Shown in pieces: positions 1,917 through 62,177 of a stretch of DNA of 64,000 nt; position 1 is the stretch's first letter; each line of letters starts with the position of its first letter. The stretch is from Candidatus Bathyarchaeota archaeon. GTDB lineage: Archaea > Thermoproteota > Bathyarchaeia > TCS64. Position numbers and translations under genes: made by a program. Where the stretch lies: assembly GCA_963769425.1 (NCBI GenBank), contig CAVYLP010000003.1:224001-288000 (forward strand). Reading direction: 5' to 3'. The notes under the pieces were generated by a model that worked only from the letters and a program-made list of their open reading frames with translations, made no database searches and was not told the DNA's origin.

Positions 1917-2642
1917 TTAGCCCACGCTTGTCACTATCGTCGTCCAAGGTGCGTTCATCTTCAGGTCGGTGAGTTTCAGGTCCTCGATGGCTCCATTTAG
2001 CATGAAGGTGCCGTGGCCGGGGTATATTCGGTCTGGGCATTCAGCGATAAGTCGTTTCAGACTCGTCTTCCACGCAGCAAGATCGAACCCCGGACCATTG
2101 ATGAACCCGAGCCGTCCCGTGGTTGAAGCGATGTCTCCGGTGAAGATCGCTTTTTTTCCATCTCTTTCCGTCATACTAACTGAGATACAACCAGGTGTGT
2201 GTCCGGGGGTATGGATGATGCCGAGATGAGCTTCACCCACGTTTAGATGGTCATTATTCTCAAGAACTCCGTCTAGCTTTGGCGCATTGAACATGATTCC
2301 TCTGGCTTTTGCCATTTCCACGAGAACGCACTCATCGAGGTTAGCTATGGAGTCCGAATCGCTCTTGTGGGCTACCAGTCTACATCCCGTTAGCTCCTTG
2401 AGTTCGTTTGCACCACCGATGTGGTCGAAGTGGCAGTGAGTCAGGATTGCGGTTTTAATGGCTCTCGGATCGAATCCGTCCTCTTTCACATTCGCCAAGA
2501 TCCTCTTTACGCCGAGTCCGCCCCCGGCATCTATGAGGATCGACTCCCCCCCGCAGTCAATCAGGTAGACGTTGCAGTCCCCAGTCGCGGACAAGCCATA
2601 GGCGGAGCCTCCGACGAGATAAACGGAATCGGTCAGCTTCAT
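1917..2642 (-). CDS. MBL-fold metallo-hydrolase
   Basis: THCHFDHIGG, HTPGHTPG, FTGD and PGHG motifs. Confidence 0.9.
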   Translation of the reverse strand: MKLTDSVYLVGGSAYGLSATGDCNVYLIDCGGESILIDAGGGLGVKRILANVKEDGFDPRAIKTAILTHCHFDHIGGANELKELTGCRLVAHKSDSDSIANLDECVLVEMAKARGIMFNAPKLDGVLENNDHLNVGEAHLGIIHTPGHTPGCISVSMTERDGKKAIFTGDIASTTGRLGFINGPGFDLAAWKTSLKRLIAECPDRIYPGHGTFMLNGAIEDLKLTDLKMNAPWTTIVTSVG

Positions 2643-2916
2643 TGAAATCGAATAAAGGTCGCCCGCGGAGGTTAAAAATCGTTGGCTGAGGTCGGAAAAT
2701 GTCATGGACGAGATTCTTGGCCAATGCCTCGCTTCGATCAACCGATCTGCCTATTGAGGCCACGTTCATCTTTCATCAAATTTGCACGCCGTAGGAAATA
2801 GTGTACGAGGATCGAGTCTAGATCGGTGGCCATTGCCTAGGCCTTATAAAATGTATACCTTCAAGATTAAGGCCACAAAATCTATCCAAGAGTCTAAAGA
2901 CCAGAAACTATCACAA

Positions 2917-3093
2917 CTATGTATCAGGGTTAAGGTCCCTAAACTGGGACGTCATCTTGGGAAGATGAACGGCGTTAAACTCCTCCAGCTTATCTGGGTG
3001 TGTTAGCTTAACGTGGAATCTTACGCCACCCGGGCTCGACGATTTCCTGGGGCAGTAAGGGCAGCTAAACTCTCTTGCCTGTTGAGTGCTCAA
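2917..3093 (-). CDS. 58-aa single C2H2 zinc-finger protein (not in the ORF track)
   Basis: Manual translation MSTQQAREFSCPYCPRKSSSPGGVRFHVKLTHPDKLEEF...; C-x2-C-x12-H-x4-H; TTG start preceded by GGAGG. Confidence 0.75.
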   Translation of the reverse strand: MSTQQAREFSCPYCPRKSSSPGGVRFHVKLTHPDKLEEFNAVHLPKMTSQFRDLNPDT

Positions 3094-3194
3094 GCAAACC
3101 CTCCGATTTAAGTATAGTGACTATGGTCTATAACACTTTTTCTCGATCCCAACTTGAGTTTGGATTCGCTTACTCCATCGCTTGGAACATCCAC

Positions 3195-3400
3195 GGCGGA
3201 AAATCGTTATCCCATCCTACTAGGAACCCAACTCCAGCTACTAGGAACCAGACACCGCCACAAGGAACAAGACACCGCTACATGGAACACGTGACCCCGC
3301 TGCTAGGAACAGCCAGACACCGCCACACGGAACATTGACCCCGTAGCTAGGAACACATGACGCCGCCACTAGGAACAGTGACACCGCCACTAGGAACACT
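3195..3400. repeat. Phased degenerate tandem array A1 (9 units, about 21-bp period, core CYACWAGGAAC) headed by GGCGGAAAATCGTTATCC
   Basis: GGAA at 3223, 3244, 3264, 3284, 3306, 3329, 3350, 3372, 3393. Confidence 0.9.
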
Positions 3401-3461
3401 GTCCCATCCACGGGGACAGACTAGGCGAATGCTCCCTATACCCGCTGCCCGGAATTGGCGC

Positions 3462-3690
3462 GGCGGAAAATCGTTATCCTATGCTACAAGGAATCCCATT
3501 CCTAGCTACAGGGAAGAAACTACCAGCTACAAGGAAGAAAATACCCGCTACCAGGAAGAAAGTTCCAGCTACAAGGAAGAGACAATACCAGCTACTAGGA
3601 ATTGAATTCCAGCTACCAGGAAGAAACTACCCGCTACAGGGAAGAAGACAATACCAGCTACAAGGAAGTAAGTTCCAGCTACAAGGAATA
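3462..3690. repeat. Phased tandem array A2 (10 units, TWCC(A/C)GCTAC(A/C/T)AGGAA with mostly 5-bp spacers) headed by the same 18-mer
   Basis: GGAA at 3490, 3512, 3533, 3554, 3575, 3598, 3619, 3640, 3664, 3685. Confidence 0.92.
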
Positions 3691-3709
3691 CGAGTCAGAG
3701 GAGTGGGCC

Positions 3710-4018
3710 ATGCGAGGAAGTACATATTCTCAGACTCTGAGGCTAGGGGATTAACTCGCCGGGGAGACGGAGGACGAGTCATATCCCTACATGCACCCCT
3801 ATCTCAGGGATGAGAGCTTCATAGCCAACCTCTAGGCGAGGCAAACCGGCAAGGCCTTCAACGAGATGGCAAAGCTCCTGTACTTGGCCTCAAAATACAG
3901 GGGGAGCACCTCACTCGTCACGGCCCCCAAGTTCGACCAGGTCAAGAACATCAAGCATCTAACCGACCACCTCCGGCGTATGAAGGCCAGAGACCTGGGC
4001 CTCTTCATACATCGATGA
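3710..4018 (+). pseudogene. Truncated terminase large subunit-like ATPase N-terminus with in-frame stops
   Basis: YPYMHPYLRDESFIANL*ARQTGKAF..LLYLA..LVTAPKFDQ resembles the terminase adenine-binding, Walker A (RQxGK) and 'AP..Q' segments; TAA at 3752, TAG at 3833. Confidence 0.6.
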
Positions 4019-4086
4019 GCGGAACATGAAGCCACGGGAGAGGCTTTAATAATCTAATCGATTCTAAACCACTCCGGTGGCCCCTA

Positions 4087-4443
4087 ATGAGTGAGAAGGA
4101 ATCCAAGGTCATCTGGCTCACCTGCCCCGACTGCGGCTCGAAGATAGGGATAATCCTCTCCGTCGGGAAGGCTACAGCTATAGCCCACCACGTCGAATCG
4201 GAGACGGTTGAGGAGACTGAAAACTGGCCCCCCTCCAGCTTCGAGGAGAAACTCAAAGCAGCCGGCGTCGACACGAGTTTATTAAACATCGAGGACGGCG
4301 AGGAAATGATTCTGGTCAGCCCAAAGAAGTTTCTGGGTGACCTATGGGGTCCGATAAATGAGACCATGCGCTCCCTTAGTGGGTCATGGATAAGGGAGGG
4401 CAGAGATAGTCGATGGGAGATCAAGAAAAACCCAAACCAATAA
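4087..4443 (+). CDS. Hypothetical protein with N-terminal CPDCG zinc knuckle
   Basis: Clean 118-aa ORF, LTCPDCGSKI; TTTAATAA TATA-like box upstream. Confidence 0.7.
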   Translation: MSEKESKVIWLTCPDCGSKIGIILSVGKATAIAHHVESETVEETENWPPSSFEEKLKAAGVDTSLLNIEDGEEMILVSPKKFLGDLWGPINETMRSLSGSWIREGRDSRWEIKKNPNQ

Positions 4444-4573
4444 TATCCATTTCTTTTTAACCCCCATTTTTAGATTATTTTCAACCCAGTTTAGGGTAGG
4501 GTAAACACTTCGAAACTTGCTCGAAAAAAGGGGCTTGACAAGACTTTATTCAGCTAAGGAGCACTTTAAAGCC

Positions 4574-5126
4574 ATGCAACAGGCCAACGCGGTCTACAAT
4601 AACCTCACCATACAAGTTCCTTCAAGAGGGGAGGCAGACAGCCTCCTGCAGGACGGCTACGGGCACATCAAGCGAGAAGAGGTGTTACATCCTAGAACCA
4701 TACGAGGCCCTGTATCTTGTTGAGAAGGAACGCCTCACAGTCATCGACGAGGAAGAAAGGCATATCCTCTCATTCCAGGAGATCCTGAACAGGGAACTAG
4801 TTAACGATCCCATGTTGTGGACGAGGTACATCATCTATAGGGACATAAGGGGGAGGGGATTCGTTGCCAAGTCGACAGCGAAAAATGACGTATCCTTCAG
4901 CGTTTACGAAAGGGGGGATTACCCGAAGAAGGCCCCCAGCTACGAATTATACGCACTGGTCGAAGGAATGCCCGAAACACTGGGACACATCGAAGAAAGG
5001 CTAGTCGAAGTCAGGGACTCCGGGCGGGCGCTTAAACTGGCCGTGATAGATAGAAGAGGAGAGCTTGTTTACTACGGACTTGATAGGCTTGAGCCTGAGA
5101 GACTAGGCGCCGATACACTCGAGTAG
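4574..5126 (+). CDS. endA: tRNA-intron endonuclease subunit (probably the structural one), +1 frameshift near 4670
   Basis: GYG..ILEPYEALYLVEK..RYIIYRDIRGRGF..LAVIDRRGELVYY; no clear catalytic His. Confidence 0.75.
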
Positions 5127-6395
5127 CTTGGAACGCTCAACCTTCACTTGGGCCCCAGTCTTCATATCCCGAATAGTCAGGCATCCTTCCGCGAGCTCAC
5201 GCTCACCGATTATCACGACCTTCCTCACGCCCTTCTTGTCAGCGTACTCCAACTGCTTCGAGAAGCGTCTACCGAGGAGATCGACCACCGTGGAGACTCC
5301 GACCGCCCTCAGGTCTTGAGCGACTTTTATCGCTTCACTTTTCACCGAGTCGGATATCGAGGCGATCAGCACGTCTACTCCGAGCTTGATTTCTTTGAAG
5401 CCTCCCTTTGTCTCTATCAGTGGGACGAGACGATCGATACCGAAGGATATTCCGGTTGCCGGTGTGCTCCCGCCGCCCATGAGATTAATGATCCCGTCAT
5501 ATCTCCCACCTCCAGCGATGCTTCCGTAGTCCTCGTAACCCTCTGCTAGAACCTCGAAGACTGGTCCAGTATAGTAGTCCAGACCTCTAGCGAGGCTGAG
5601 CTCGACAACGATGTACTCGGCGTAGCCAAAGGACTTCGCGTAATTAATTAACTCTCTAAGAGCCTTCAGACCGGCAAGTCCTTCAGGAGAATCAGTAAGT
5701 TTCCCCTCAGTCTCATCCAGAACCTTGGCAGGAGTACCGGTTTGGGCTAGTGATTCTAAGAGTAGATTAGCGGATTCCGCTTCCACGGACAGCTTCGCAA
5801 GCTCCTGGACAACTCCGTCTTTCCCTATTTTCAGCAGCTTGTCCACTGCCCGAATGGCTTCCAATGTGCGGTCCTGTGGAACCCCTGCTTTTTTGATGAA
5901 TGCCTCGAGTATTCTCCTGTCGTTGAGCTTTATCACGAAGCCCTCGAAGCCCATCTTCTTGAGGCAGTCGACCGCGGCAGATAGGACCTCTGCGTCAGCT
6001 ATTGAGCCACTTACACCAACCGTGTCGGCGTCGGCCTGCCAGAACTCTCTGAAACGCTTCTCGCTGGGGTTTTCGTATCTCCAGACGGTCCCCATCGCGT
6101 ACCTCTTGAAGGGCATCTGGAGTTCGCGATGCACGGCCACCACGCGTGCAAGGCTCGTCGTTAGGTCGAACCTGAGTCCAAGCTCCCTGTCCGCCTTATC
6201 CTTGAAGTAGTAGATCTGGTTTATCACGTCCTCCCCGCTCTTCAGCTTGAGTAGCTCCCAGCTCTCGAAGGCGGGTGTTCCCAGGGGCTCGAAGCCGTAG
6301 GCCTCGTAGACCCCCCGTATCTGGTCCAGGACCCAGTTCCTCTTGTACATCTCCTCGGGGAGGAAGTCCCGGGTACCGCGTGGTGGCTGGTACAT
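5103..6395 (-). CDS. hisS: Histidyl-tRNA synthetase
   Basis: PRGTRDF, LRFDLT, RFREFWQ, LARGLDYYTG, GGGRYD. Confidence 0.97.
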   Translation of the reverse strand: MYQPPRGTRDFLPEEMYKRNWVLDQIRGVYEAYGFEPLGTPAFESWELLKLKSGEDVINQIYYFKDKADRELGLRFDLTTSLARVVAVHRELQMPFKRYAMGTVWRYENPSEKRFREFWQADADTVGVSGSIADAEVLSAAVDCLKKMGFEGFVIKLNDRRILEAFIKKAGVPQDRTLEAIRAVDKLLKIGKDGVVQELAKLSVEAESANLLLESLAQTGTPAKVLDETEGKLTDSPEGLAGLKALRELINYAKSFGYAEYIVVELSLARGLDYYTGPVFEVLAEGYEDYGSIAGGGRYDGIINLMGGGSTPATGISFGIDRLVPLIETKGGFKEIKLGVDVLIASISDSVKSEAIKVAQDLRAVGVSTVVDLLGRRFSKQLEYADKKGVRKVVIIGERELAEGCLTIRDMKTGAQVKVERSKLLECIGA

Positions 6396-6668: not shown

Positions 6669-8088
6669 TTACTCGAAGGCTCCGCGTAGGAAGGGGTATA
6701 GGTCCGCGACCTGTTCCTGCACCATCGTCTGGTAGTACTGGTATAGTATGCTGACTGCCAGCAGGGCACCCATTCCGCTTCCGAAGACTCCGAAGAAGTC
6801 AGAGATCGCCGCAAGTGCACCGACGATTGCTCCACCGATGATTGTGATCGTCGGGATGTACCTATTCAATAGGGTCACTATGGGCTGCTTGTTCCTCCTG
6901 AAACCAGGAACCTGCATCCCTGACTCCAGTAGCTGATCTGCCATATCTTCAGCGCCCAGACCACCAATTTCAAGCCAAGTTACACTGAAAATCACACAGA
7001 AGACTATCACGATTAACGCATAGACTAGGGCTCGGAGAGGGGCAGTCAAAACTCCTTGGAGGTACCGGGTGATGTAATATAGTAGACAAGTCCACCTGTC
7101 GCGACTGGTTGGCCATTTGATGCAGTAAGTGAATGTTCCGAGCCAGTTGAGCCAGTTGTTGTCGTTTGCGACGTTCCATTTACTCCAGAGGAATTGACCT
7201 ACCATCTGGAAGTTAGCGAAGAGGGCGTAGGCGAGTATTACGGGTATGTTGGAGACGTAGAGGAGCTTTATAGGCATCCTACCGCGGTAGCCCCGGTACT
7301 GGCTGTGACTTATTGGGTAGCTCAACACGCATGCCCTCGACGTATATCACGAAGAGGAAGACTGCGATGGTCGTGAAGAACCCGATCATGTCCGGCGCCC
7401 CGTTTGCCCTGAAGAACCAGCTGTAGATGGGTACCCTCGTCCAGATTCCTTGGAAGAATGCCACGATGGCACCGTATGCCCTACCATCGTAGTTGATGAA
7501 GCTGAAGCTCATCCACCAGATGTTCGCTGTGATGCCTCCTACGATGAAGAGGCTTATCCCGCTGCCGATACCCCAGCCCTTCTGCACCAACTCATCGAGG
7601 AGCATGATGATGAGTCCCGCGACAAGCAGCTGTGCAAATATCAACAATGCCTTAGTAAGGGTGACTGAGCCGTACTGGCCGCTGACGATGTATAGTGAGG
7701 CCTGGATAATGATCATGACTATGGAGAAGAATTTACTCGCGGTCGTGAATAGCCCGCGGTCCTCTGCGCTGCTCCTATCGAATGATATGATGTCTGAGCC
7801 GGCGAGCAGCTGGATTATCAGTCCAGCTGTCACTATGGGGCCTATTCCGAGCTCCATGAGGGTCCCTCTCGCTGAGGCGAAGATGACCCTGTACGCCGTG
7901 AAGGTGTCTCCTGACGTCGTTACGGGTATCCCGTAGAGCGGGATCTCGGACATGATGAAGTAAATAAGTAGGGCAAGGAGCGTCCAGATGAGCCTGTTTT
8001 GGAAGCTCACCTTTCTCTCCGGTGGCTTTACCTCTGGTATGACCCGGGAGATGGGCTTGAAGAGCTCGAGGAAGCGCAAAGCTATCAC
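6669..8088 (-). CDS. secY: Preprotein translocase SecY (frameshift near 7313 and a garbled segment about 7060-7130; probable assembly errors)
   Basis: LMELGIGPIVTA, DELVQKGWGIGSGISLF, PIKLLYVSNIP, QVPGFRR; follows rpl15. Confidence 0.93.
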
Positions 8089-25568: not shown

Positions 25569-25635
25569 GGCTGAAGAATCGGAGGTTCGGATAAAAAGCC
25601 TTCCAGCCACCGGCGGAAAACGTTTATCGCTTAAC

Positions 25636-39862: not shown

Positions 39863-40019
39863 ATCTAGTCGATAGATGAGGCTTGGATCTGGAGATTTAA
39901 CCTCTTCGGGGTTAGCCACAGGTGTAAAAACCCATTTTTTTTTATTTATGAACAGTGGCAAAAATTATAGGAACAGGTCCACTGGAGTTGTAGAACTCTT
40001 GAACGACTACATGTTCATC

Positions 40020-40255
40020 GATTCCTAGTGGCAGGTGCAAAAAGTGATGAATTTCCGGGATACCACCCTACTAGGAATCCACACCCAACCAGCCAGTGAG
40101 CCATACCACCCTACTAGGAATCAGATTCCTAGTGGCAGGTATCAGAGGGTCGAGGTGAGCACTCCGCGATTCCACCCTACTAGGTATGGGATTCCTACCC
40201 ACAGGTGCGAGTCATACCATGCTACTAGGAATCCGGTTCCTAGTGGCAGGAATCC
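40020..40255. repeat. Array B: alternating TACCACCCTACTAGGAA / TTCCTAGTGGCAGGWA units on a 22-bp lattice, related to A1/A2
   Basis: Units at 40022, 40061, 40104, 40126, 40170, 40192, 40215, 40237; exact 20-mer at 40060/40103; perfect palindrome 40113-40133. Confidence 0.9.
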
Positions 40256-40487
40256 ACGCGGGGTTAGTTGCCATGAGGAAATTCCACTATTTAATCGCCC
40301 TAAAGGGACACAGGAAGATCCATTCGGGGCTTTCGCACTATCTATTCACTATAGATACACGAGTTCGCCCTGTAATTTTGATTTTTTTCGCAGCTTTTTA
40401 ACCCCCACTCGTCGAGGTCCAGAACAAATAATAATCGGTTAACTGTTGTTAATTAAAATAGAGCTAAAAAGGCTAGCTTTAAGGAAC

Positions 40488-43146: not shown

Positions 43147-43170
43147 TCACATCATCCCCAGCTGGCGGAG

Positions 43171-43263
43171 CGGGCCTGAGGGGATTTGAACCCCTGACCA
43201 ACGGCTCTCTTCGACCCTAAGGTCCTAAAAGGCCGACGCTCTTCCTTGCTGAGCTACAGGCCC
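43171..43263 (-). tRNA. tRNA-Lys(TTT) with 19-nt canonical intron (43207-43225)
   Basis: Acceptor GGGCCTG/CAGGCCC; CTTTTA|GGACCTTAGGGTCGAAGAG|A forms a BHB. Confidence 0.9.
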
Positions 43264-43443: not shown

Positions 43444-43537
43444 GCGGTCGTAGTCCAGCCTGGTAGGACGCCAGCCCCCCACGAGTGTTTCTCGGGGAAA
43501 GTTGGTGACCCGGGTCCAATTCCCGGCGACCGCACCA
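43444..43537 (+). tRNA. tRNA-Gly(CCC) with 18-nt canonical intron (43482-43499), CCA encoded
   Basis: Acceptor GCGGTCG/CGACCGC; CCCCCA|CGAGTGTTTCTCGGGGAA|A forms a BHB. Confidence 0.88.
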
Positions 43538-59998: not shown

Positions 59999-60274
59999 TT
60001 AGACCCCTTGCTCGATTAACTGCCTAAGCGCGGCAACCTCGCCCTTCAACTCGCTAAGTTCCGCGTCCCTCAATAATGGGGTAGCTACGCCGACAGCCGA
60101 CACGATAACACGGCCCAAACCCATTTTCTCAGTATTCGCGCTATTCTTCAGATACAACTTTGTGAATGCTATATGGCAAACCTCATCAAGATAAAGCAAT
60201 AATGACGCCCTATCAAGACTCGGCTTATCACGCAACTTCTCAAGGAATACCTTGGGCTTTTCAACCGCAACCAA
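59999..60274 (-). CDS. Hypothetical helical protein with C-terminal coiled coil
   Basis: ..LLRDAELSELKGEVAALRQ; lies at the edge of the AT-rich island. Confidence 0.5.
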   Translation of the reverse strand: MVAVEKPKVFLEKLRDKPSLDRASLLLYLDEVCHIAFTKLYLKNSANTEKMGLGRVIVSAVGVATPLLRDAELSELKGEVAALRQLIEQGV

Positions 60275-60373
60275 CTCAGTAAAATTTACAGGCGGAAATA
60301 CCTTACATATTTAGATGTGTCGATGCATGGCGGCCAGGCGTTGCCTCCCCGCGTTAGGATGTAAGTGATAGAA

Positions 60374-60739
60374 CTATGGGATATGCAATGTTTGAATCCT
60401 ATTATGTTTCTTTATCTCATCCTGTGTTTTGTTTTCTTTATCTGCTTTTTTTTGGCAATCATCTTCGTAGAGATATGCTCCTAAAATATTCACTGATTTG
60501 TATTTCACCCCATTCTTGTTAAGCTCATCTTGTTTCTTATTTCTGAATTCTCTTATTGCTCTATCAGTGTATTTCGCGTCTTCCGGTTTAGTGCGGAATA
60601 GAACCAATTTTATTTCAATATACTCGCATTCTGTGATAGATTCCTCAATTGGTTTATCTTGGTAAATGATTTTATAGGGTATCCAATATTTGAATAGTTC
60701 ACCCTCTAAAATGTTATCCGATGTTCTCTTTCCACTCAT
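60374..60739 (-). CDS. Hypothetical protein (AT-rich island)
   Basis: 121-aa ORF with ATG start. Confidence 0.55.
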   Translation of the reverse strand: MSGKRTSDNILEGELFKYWIPYKIIYQDKPIEESITECEYIEIKLVLFRTKPEDAKYTDRAIREFRNKKQDELNKNGVKYKSVNILGAYLYEDDCQKKADKENKTQDEIKKHNRIQTLHIP

Positions 60740-60828
60740 CTCAGGTCGATTAAGGTTTATCAGTCAATGGAGATTAAATTTTCTGTTAGGCGTGTTTAAT
60801 CTCAAATTTTCCATCCGTGGGCGTAAAT

Positions 60829-61053
60829 TCAAGAAAAGGGATTCCAACTTTTCTTCTCTTTACATCTATGATTTTCAGGTATATGGTGCGAAGAACACAA
60901 CACTTTACCGCATTTATGACACTTGTAGGCATTCTCAGATTTAGTTTGCATAAACCGTTTACCACAAAAACTACATCTAAGATAATGGTCACCCTTGATG
61001 GTATTCGACGTATTTGATTTACTAGTTTTTTTAAACCAATTTAGCGGATTCAT
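60829..61053 (-). CDS. AN1-type zinc-finger protein
   Basis: CSFCGK..YKCHKCGKVLCSSHHIPENHRC. Confidence 0.8.
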   Translation of the reverse strand: MNPLNWFKKTSKSNTSNTIKGDHYLRCSFCGKRFMQTKSENAYKCHKCGKVLCSSHHIPENHRCKEKKSWNPFS

Positions 61054-61068
61054 ATCCCCGCCACAAAA

Positions 61069-61626
61069 CGAGAACTGTCAATTTAATATTTGAAACCTTG
61101 GCGAGCGAGCGCACCCGATCCTCATCATGATAGTCTATTAATAAATTTTTAATATAAATGGAGTTCTAAATAAAAAAAGAGGATAGTATTGAATCTTAAT
61201 TCTATTATTTTTCCGACTGTTATCGTAGTTATATGTGTTGCCCTCCACGAATTAGGTCATTTTACAATGGCTAAATACTTTAAAAGATCAGCATGGTTTA
61301 GAGTAGGAAAAGTAAAAGGTATCCCTGCCATCATCACGTCTCATAAAAGAGAATTTGAGATTCATACTTATGTAGATTTGAAAAGGGCATTTAAAGAAGA
61401 GATTAAAATAACTCAAGCAGGTCTTCTAAGTGTAGTTTTACCACTATTCTTAATTTGTCTTTATCCCGCATTCTGGCAATTCTTTTTTATTGTCATCTTA
61501 CTTTTTATGATTTATACTATTTGGGAAATAGAATTTATAATTAATATCGAAGTCGAAAAAATTGAGAAATATAGTCTTTTCTGAATATTTGCATTAAGGC
61601 GAGAACTGTAAATTTAATATTTGAAA
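61069..61626. repeat. 27-bp direct repeat pair (26/27 identical) bracketing one gene
   Basis: CGAGAACTGT(C/A)AATTTAATATTTGAAA at 61069-61095 and 61600-61626. Confidence 0.85.
61189..61584 (+). CDS. Small membrane HExxH protein (M50/S2P-like)
   Basis: TM segment followed by LHELGH; further TM segments. Confidence 0.7.
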   Translation: MNLNSIIFPTVIVVICVALHELGHFTMAKYFKRSAWFRVGKVKGIPAIITSHKREFEIHTYVDLKRAFKEEIKITQAGLLSVVLPLFLICLYPAFWQFFFIVILLFMIYTIWEIEFIINIEVEKIEKYSLF

Positions 61627-61640
61627 TTTAGTACATATTG

Positions 61641-62177
61641 TTAAGCGAATAGTAAGGAAGGGTAGAAATAATAACTCCAATAGTTTATGCCAATTAAAAT
61701 AATGCTTAATATAATTAACATATAGAATGGTTTATGATCATTAAATATTCTAGCCATATAGTTTCTCCATCGCATTTTGAGTTCTGGTTTATTCTTATAT
61801 TTCCCAGTTCTTTGAGAAAACTCAGAGGCCGCTCTTTTTAAAAGATATAGTTGACTAAAATCGTAATTATCTGAATATTTTCCTTTTTTGCTCTCCTCTT
61901 TATTCGCTTCTATAAATCCTTCCCCAGTATATGTTTTAACATACATAACTGCCTCAATAAGGATTGAATAGTATCCTGCTCTGAGTAAAAAATAAGTCAT
62001 ACTTAAAAGAGACATCAATATAAACACAAAGAAGTTAAAATGAAAAGTGCTTATTATATCCCGCGCACCTAAAAGGGCTATTACTGTAGCTACCAAATAG
62101 CCAATATGAGCATGACTTTTTTGAGTAAACAAATTAATTAAAGTTGATCGAGTATTTTCTAATTCGTCCGCTACCAT
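61641..62177 (-). CDS. Hypothetical membrane protein (AT-rich island)
   Basis: 178-aa ORF with three hydrophobic segments. Confidence 0.6.
   Translation of the reverse strand: MVADELENTRSTLINLFTQKSHAHIGYLVATVIALLGARDIISTFHFNFFVFILMSLLSMTYFLLRAGYYSILIEAVMYVKTYTGEGFIEANKEESKKGKYSDNYDFSQLYLLKRAASEFSQRTGKYKNKPELKMRWRNYMARIFNDHKPFYMLIILSIILIGINYWSYYFYPSLLFA

Follow-up and report, generated by a model that had tools for sequence, protein, structure and literature searches.

Promoter-headed tandem arrays dispersed in a bathyarchaeal genome: a possible control region of a decayed virus-like packaging operon

Why should an intergenic region of an archaeal chromosome carry two blocks of short direct repeats, each opened by the same promoter-like sequence, and what could such blocks be for? 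The region belongs to the window, by which we mean the whole stretch of 64 000 nucleotides that was analysed (positions 224001–288000 of contig C3), in an archaeal genome of 2.55 Mb that is 91% complete and consists of six contigs. The surrounding genes include a ribosomal-protein cluster, SecY and HisRS. The G+C content of the window is 0.50–0.61 except at 60001–62000, where it falls sharply to 0.347. Two 94 nt tRNA genes (43170–43263, minus strand, and 43444–43537, plus strand), for one of which ARAGORN gave no anticodon, probably carry introns.

Both blocks are read on the plus strand. The first consists of header 1 (3195–3212) and array A1 (3213–3396), and the second of header 2 (3462–3479) and array A2 (3480–3688). 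The two 18 bp headers are BRE/TATA-like boxes that are identical letter for letter, as already reported in the preliminary description, and two further exact copies are present in the genome. A1 contains nine GGAA-ended units of 20–23 bp, the cores of which end in CCGCCAC or CCGCTAC and lack a TWCC arm; it is closed by a 7 bp stem with a 7 nt loop (3399–3419, plus strand), which was read from the sequence and is present in both the minimum-energy and the centroid folds. A2 contains ten units of 21–24 bp with the core CC(A/C)GCTAC-NN-GGAA and a 65 bp (three-unit) super-period. Tandem Repeats Finder reports period-21 arrays at 3240–3401 (7.6 copies, 72% matches) and 3504–3688 (8.6 copies, 76% matches), with super-periods of 43 and 65 bp on top of the 21 bp period. 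The successive GGAA spacings are 25, 21, 20, 20, 22, 23, 21, 22 and 21 bp in A1 and 25, 22, 21, 21, 21, 23, 21, 21, 24 and 21 bp in A2. The 25 bp step, the first past the header in A1 and A2 alike, was lacking from the otherwise correct lists of the preliminary description. In the interval 3195–3700, 17 of the 21 successive GGAA steps measure 20–24 bp, compared with 0.08 on average and never more than 2 in 2000 mononucleotide shuffles, which bears out the proposed 21–22 bp period: the arrays are real and far beyond chance.

The units were originally described as 19 quasi-palindromic TWCC-N8-GGAA sites lying on one face of the DNA, and both statements need to be revised. There are indeed about 19 GGAA-ended units, but fewer than half of them are quasi-palindromic: the plus strand of 3195–3690 contains nine exact TWCC-N8-GGAA matches (eight in A2, one at 3439 between the blocks and none in A1), of which only three have genuine TTCC…GGAA ends. 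The conserved element of the units is instead an asymmetric core, CNSCYASNNGGAA, with 14 matches in the region, compared with an expectation of 1.28 for the entire window. The phasing with respect to the helix is approximate, as the core-to-core spacing averages 21.9 bp and the sites consequently drift off one helical face by ∼6 bp across A2.

A 110-codon frame (3481–3813) runs through A2 and could be taken for a repeat-containing protein-coding gene. However, the frame begins inside the TATA-like box, units of 20–24 nt shift the frame from one unit to the next, all three frames are long and open since T is scarce, and there is no Pfam match; a coding repeat is thus hardly credible and the earlier assignment of the region as noncoding stands. 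A CRISPR array was likewise rejected, as it had been before, since only 5–9 variable bases separate the cores of units that are 20–24 bp in total, compared with repeats of 24–48 bp and unique spacers of similar length in CRISPR. Single-base differences in unit length should be regarded as soft, several genes in the assembly being split by frameshifts. Within the window, the genes for NucS and SecY both fall into two overlapping frames (positions 1134–2040 and 6669–8088); elsewhere in the genome, those for RpoB, an MFS transporter and an amidohydrolase are split, and these interruptions look like long-read assembly indel errors rather than pseudogenes. The arrays as such are unlikely to be an assembly artefact, to judge from their sequence context, because near-identical composites sit in different unique flanks.

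Three features had been missed in the preliminary description: the arrays belong to a dispersed family, they are part of an insertion specific to this genome and they correspond to the region upstream of a small gene and a terminase gene of a virus-like element. Searches of the 2.55 Mb genome by blastn with positions 2500–4500, by motif scans and with a covariance model based on sequence alone revealed 18 loci with a total of 24 arrays, in addition to promoter modules without long arrays. All of the arrays share the header and the unit core CC-N-S-CTAC-NN-GG, whereas their flanks are array-specific. The header opens every array and is followed by 8–13 units; its segment AAAA-N-CGTTAT-N-C is invariant in all 16 aligned cassettes. 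The bases past the GG of the core differ from array to array (GGAA, GGTACC, GGATCA, GGTATA or GGAGTCGGAA). Core-to-core spacings over the 24 arrays have a mean of 21.9 bp and a standard deviation of 1.15 bp (n = 128), with 54 spacings of 21 bp, 33 of 22 bp, 20 of 23 bp, 16 of 24 bp and four of 20 bp. The composite of A1 and A2 is 95.5% identical over 534 bp to C6:762648–763179, and A2 is 94.9% identical to C6:900231–900482 (blastn). Contig C3 also contains an unrelated tandem repeat at 4668–6013 (127 bp × 10.5 copies, 92% matches).

The family is very restricted in its distribution. The exact two-core pattern matches this genome 51 times but none of 60 relatives; a search of 185 579 species genomes returned 29 loci and one of IMG/VR two matches, all of them single and chance-like. 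The sequence-only model R1 has 57 matches in this genome, nine in the congener G002, where the arrays are short (3–6 units), and one weak match in each of four other genomes, so that five of the 60 relatives searched have matches and 55 have none. In the portion of the literature on archaeal promoter-headed tandem repeats that was available nothing comparable was found, which is no proof of absence from print. Judged by sequence comparison, the window arrays are one copy of a dispersed lineage-specific family. Higher-order periods of 43–109 bp are common among the arrays and, together with the array-specific unit variants, are read as an indication of concerted evolution within arrays.

REP/BIME-like elements mobilized by a RAYT/IS200-type transposase have some resemblance to the arrays, in that the opposite strand of the core shows GTAG ahead of a short palindrome and that the GGTACC and GGATCA types have short inverted arms. 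However, the units are direct rather than alternating and show no excess folding (z scores of −0.3 to −0.9), and the Y1 transposase family (PF01797) has no match in the 91%-complete genome, while the control search was positive in six of 14 known genomes; we therefore give this explanation almost no weight. Neither fixed ends nor target-site duplications of a mobile unit could be defined at the array loci examined. The remnants of the neighbouring upstream ORF (ending …KAYLYW…) are variable, with lengths of ∼20 to 60 codons, and because of this variable extent no transposon-like boundary can be drawn.

In a MAFFT alignment with G012, G008 and G002, which are the closest relatives by the flanking MBL-fold protein (79–87% identity), positions 3153–4034 (plus strand, ∼880 bp) form one block that is missing from the same intergenic region, between the MBL-fold gene and the gene for ZnF118. 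This region is ∼480 bp long in the three relatives, where it aligns with the rest of the window sequence, and the relic as a whole occurs at this site in this genome only. An empty site was found in relatives at all three array sites examined (MBL–ZnF118, RLI–AP endonuclease and S15–Ham1). At the latter two sites the host promoters are intact and arrays are present in this genome only; at S15–Ham1, G002 contains a gene of the small79 family introduced below together with a TerL gene (75% identical to that of this genome), where this genome has arrays only. The neighbouring zinc-finger gene, that of ZnF118, had been put forward as encoding an array-binding partner. This candidate was rejected, as relatives with the empty site retain the gene together with its promoter, and the gene is hence not tied to the arrays. 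Immediately upstream of the insertion, positions 2770–3150 are roughly 80–90% conserved by eye in three congeners and include a TATA-like box; the segment has no Rfam match and may correspond to a small RNA or small ORF that has escaped annotation.

The sequence downstream of A2 indicates what the inserted block was part of. The order in the window is array A2, a stump of a small79 gene and a stump of a terminase large-subunit gene (terL). The small79 stump (3715–3753, plus strand) comprises 13 codons, RKYIFSDSEARGL, read against the consensus MRxYIFTxxERRRLxxWL; its frame is open to 3813 and most of the gene has been deleted. The terL stump (3776–4006, plus strand; located by tblastn) covers residues 17–96 with one in-frame stop and is 70% identical over 80 residues (E = 2.9e-24) to the intact TerL encoded at C2:93277–94683, for which the matches are phrog_2 (6.1e-34) and Pfam Terminase_6N (4e-8). 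According to a regular-expression search, arrays at six loci are succeeded by an N-terminal stump of small79; reading by eye adds the window, C2:143.2k, C5:80.6k, C4:178.0k and C3:290.5k. The recurrent post-array translation R-K-Y-I/V-F-T-x-x-E-R-R-R-L matches intact genes of 79–130 residues in this genome. This stump is the only recurrent downstream feature, the downstream genes differing at every array locus. Several arrays are preceded by the 3′ remnant mentioned above; it has a weak GNAT match and derives from an ORF that fuller copies carry ahead of small79. The window contains another relic of the array family (40020–40350, or 39915–40350 in its wider span, plus strand), in which inverted cores alternate with direct ones around an A/T-rich promoter-like box and the first four codons of small79 come next; its likeness to the TerL C-terminus is weak (tblastn E = 0.55).

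Intact small79 genes lie just upstream of terL at four loci (contig C2 of this genome, C49 of G002 and the metagenome loci L181 and L188), with a second small ORF between or beside the two genes. Matches to small79 are most numerous in this genome (six) and in G002 (seven), the same two genomes that are highest in array matches. The locus at C2:93277–95193, with intact small79 (94957–95193), the second small ORF and terL, is ∼700 bp from an apparent tRNA-gene fragment (by eye), a possible integration site; because its downstream ORFs have no PHROG head or tail matches, the locus may represent a short remnant instead of a complete provirus.

The intact loci also suggest what the repeated unit was before it was repeated. 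A header-like sequence occurs 60 nt before the small79 start in G017; in G002 (contigs C47 and C19) a TATA-like box and then one or two cores just precede small79, and both L180 and L181, from metagenomes, have a BRE/TATA-like box with one core-like CAGCTAC directly behind it. No array was found at any of 12 loci in the genus or 17 metagenome loci with intact small79, where at most one or two cores are present or none is visible. As homologous small79 promoters carry no more than this, the arrays are best read as the amplified form of a promoter-proximal element that normally occurs in one or two copies. Since intact small79 genes are mostly without an array, as are the relatives of TerL in IMG/VR (none of 40 has such arrays and none of the 40 has small79), the arrays would not be required by the virus. 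A viral collection searched with a five-row small79 alignment yielded no relative.

We consider that the blocks represent the upstream control region of the small79–terL packaging operon of a decayed tailed-virus-like element, in which a promoter-proximal binding site has been amplified into a phased array. This is our preferred explanation, to which we assign about an even chance of being correct. Each block would then consist of a BRE/TATA promoter followed by 9–10 tandem units of ∼21.9 bp, the conserved 12 bp core of which, CC-N-S-CTAC-NN-GG, would natively lie downstream of the TATA box, in one or two copies ahead of the start codon of small79. The core is proposed to be a double-stranded DNA-binding site of a small dimeric protein of the element, for which small79 is the obvious candidate, and amplification of the site would have produced a roughly phased array on which the element's protein could bind cooperatively. 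Its purpose might be to mark the DNA for the terminase, in the manner of pac or cosB, or to shut or open the operon promoter, in the manner of ParR–parC or omega. The array site does adjoin terminase genes and overlaps both the promoter and the first part of the small gene upstream, as pac and cos sites do; arrays of this kind are not, however, present in the related viruses and elements that were searched, namely the 40 TerL relatives and 17 metagenome loci referred to above. This scarcity counts against our explanation, as do the drift in spacing and the lack of a recognized DNA-binding domain in small79. An operator or protein-loading array, both raised in the preliminary description, remains the best functional guess from the sequence. 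The copy in the window is most likely to be a relic, as its genes are gone, and at most it would titrate the protein of a related incoming element.

Among the competing explanations, the most serious is that the arrays are functionless minisatellites: slippage and unequal crossing-over would have amplified a promoter-side segment of integrated elements, leaving neutral debris. The periods of 43, 65–66 and 109 bp and the array-specific variants are the signature of concerted evolution, the arrays are lineage-specific, the adjacent genes are stumps and homologous promoters elsewhere have 0–2 cores, all of which would fit. Against this, the core is conserved across at least five array types with diverged flanks, array lengths cluster at 8–13 units, and 18 array loci persist while the rest of the element is almost gone. 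We thus regard neutral debris as unlikely. A point against our preferred explanation is that simple decay does not account for the 18 array loci beside two terL stumps (and one intact terL gene) in this genome. Repeated deletions that remove the genes may account for the excess of arrays over terL, as may a search that was biased toward arrays.

The excess would also be explained if the host kept arrays with promoter and gene start for its own use, whether as decoys that titrate a small79-type protein of an incoming virus or as pseudo-pac sites for the packaging of host DNA by a resident or helper capsid (GTA-like or lateral transduction with defined starting points). With terL surviving as a stump at only two places beside the 18 array loci, such retention deserves mention, although we judge it to be quite improbable.

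The candidate protein, small79, belongs to a family with 179 cluster representatives at E ≤ 1e-3. None of 67 members has a Pfam match in the small79 region, there is no PHROGs match, a protein atlas gave no usable match, and the comparison with PDB sequences revealed no relative (a single chance row with E = 0.32); no recognized DNA-binding domain was found. The predicted model (pLDDT 85.6) has an extended N-terminus followed by two helices. Foldseek searches of the PDB with either model returned nothing at E ≤ 0.001, and the best Z score of a wide VIA-align search was 4.7, among generic helical hairpins. The protein is predicted to form an intertwined homodimer with an ipSAE of 0.79, compared with 0.00 for the best of three controls, with at least 95% contact agreement between runs and a partner pLDDT of at least 87. 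The ipSAE mark is reached by 20 of 30 solved homo-pairs and one of 23 single chains, counts that are roughly applicable here because a custom alignment was used. The strand–helix–helix order of the model is that of ribbon–helix–helix proteins, which makes this fold a topological guess. One protein of 588 residues (P0029) contains eight tandem stretches that match the small79 profile, so that the small79 domain also exists as an internal repeat.

A BRE/TATA position weight matrix was derived from the upstream regions of 42 tRNA genes (consensus GGAAAGGTTTTAAATC, beginning ∼40 nt ahead of the mature end). With scores of 4.4–9.0 bits (5.9 for header 1 and 6.2 for header 2), compared with a median of 11.1 and a minimum of 3.6 for the tRNA genes, the headers fall within the range of tRNA promoters of this genome, in keeping with their earlier description as promoter-like. 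As 14 372 of 5.1 million genome positions reach the threshold of 6.2 bits, however, the scores are compatible with a promoter but not distinctive. The resemblance of the header to a sequence at 25612 was also correctly noted. The box there lies ∼26 nt upstream of C, D′ and C′ box-like motifs, which we take to be of the C/D-box type, and they make the segment 25612–25720 a probable C/D-box sRNA gene, which Rfam did not list at the gathering score.

If the header fires, the array could be transcribed into an unstructured 5′ leader or noncoding RNA, the CUAC-NN-GGAA motifs of which would bind a protein or RNA and act as a sponge or in leader control of small79 and terL. This explanation draws on the promoter-like header, which opens each array at its 5′ end and always in one orientation, on the near-identical box that precedes the C/D-box-like sRNA at 25612 and on the position of the arrays between promoter and small79 start, where they would be transcribed if the promoter works. 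Furthermore, no run of four or more T residues occurs in the 5667 nt of sense strand that the 24 arrays comprise, against ∼13.6 expected, which would suit read-through transcription; the contrast is inflated by the non-independence of repeated units. On the other hand, the RNA folding of the blocks is no better than that of dinucleotide shuffles (z scores of −0.92 for A2 and −0.27 for A1 on the plus strand and −0.64 for A2 on the minus strand), cores also occur inverted upstream of the promoter-like box, where they would lie outside the transcript, and no CsrA was found in the genome. Arms such as TTCC/GGAA, TGATCC/GGATCA and GGTAC/GTACC prompted the idea of hairpins, but A1 and A2 give no folding signal. 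Rfam reports nothing in the array region at gathering thresholds over the whole window, and four chance-level rows for 2750–4100 at E ≤ 10. A transcribed repeat RNA is thus unlikely. The CsrB-like sponge advanced in the preliminary description was rejected, there being no match to PF02599, no excess structure and no Rfam match, and a ToxI-like type III toxin–antitoxin system was rejected owing to the lack of a conserved toxin gene downstream, where the genes differ from locus to locus. Recognition of double-stranded DNA, as proposed for the amplified operator, is favoured by the inverted cores in a position where they would not be transcribed, by the first core copy, which abuts the TATA box, and by the absence of a structure signal in the array RNA.

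An iteron-type replication origin or a chromosome or plasmid centromere, which the ∼21–22 bp direct repeats arranged in blocks had first called to mind by their resemblance to plasmid iterons and parC-type centromeres, fares much worse, even though a gene for a small, predicted dimeric protein is associated. The sole Orc1/Cdc6 (Cdc6_C) match is on another contig (C1:24396–24674), and none of 89 flanking ORFs at 11 loci matches a named replication-initiator or partition-ATPase family, some generic AAA, ABC and SMC matches aside. No AT-rich unwinding element adjoins the blocks and the number of arrays (24, at 18 loci) is too high for origins, so that this role, although suggested at the outset, is very improbable.

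These observations bear on annotation, since 'iteron-like' arrays need not mark origins, and they are a clear example of the way in which an archaeal chromosome acquires lineage-specific minisatellites from virus debris. Should the core be a protein-binding site, it would constitute a rare candidate for the DNA-recognition region that serves the packaging or late operon in an archaeal tailed virus, with a ready candidate partner from an uncharacterized family (179 clusters) and a natural amplification series, from 1–2 up to 13 copies, that is suited to the study of cooperative binding.

Several known systems resemble the arrays in part. Plasmid iterons and archaeal ORB arrays share the direct repeats and the ∼22 bp period, but an adjacent initiator gene is lacking here and the arrays are found at many loci. 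CsrB/RsmZ sponge RNAs and ToxI repeat RNAs also combine a promoter with short tandem repeats downstream of it that share a conserved motif; here, however, there is no CsrA, no hairpin-displayed motif and no conserved downstream toxin gene, and the period is 21–24 rather than ∼36 nt. The pac site of the Bacillus phages SPP1 and SF6, which is the recognition site of the small terminase, is similar in that a promoter, direct repeats and the start of a small gene upstream of terL are combined here too. It differs in that SPP1 has few short boxes rather than 9–13 tandem units of 21–24 bp, and in that small79 is a candidate small terminase at most, a second small ORF being present beside it and terL. 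In phage lambda, cosB contains R sites upstream of the Nu1–A genes, with three 16 bp sites and an IHF site. These binding sites of the small subunit lie immediately upstream of the terS–terL genes, in a position comparable to that of the arrays; in contrast to lambda, there are ∼10 tandem units here and no cosN-like nick site was identified.

In ParR–parC of plasmid R1 and the omega operators of pSM19035 (heptads), ribbon–helix–helix dimers bind direct-repeat arrays at a promoter, with repeats of 7–11 bp. Here also contiguous, roughly phased direct repeats are situated at a promoter beside the gene for a small protein that is predicted to be dimeric, and the small79 model has the strand–helix–helix order and a predicted intertwined dimer. 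The repeats of these systems are nevertheless much shorter than the ∼22 bp units of the present arrays, small79 has no fold match, and the cooperative binding of those systems is here a proposal by analogy. Among the systems considered, the ParR–parC and omega operator arrays appear to be closest in form to the arrays. In our judgement there is an even prospect that the arrays are a lineage-specific variant of the direct-repeat recognition or operator regions that head a viral packaging operon, with the copy in the window as a relic.
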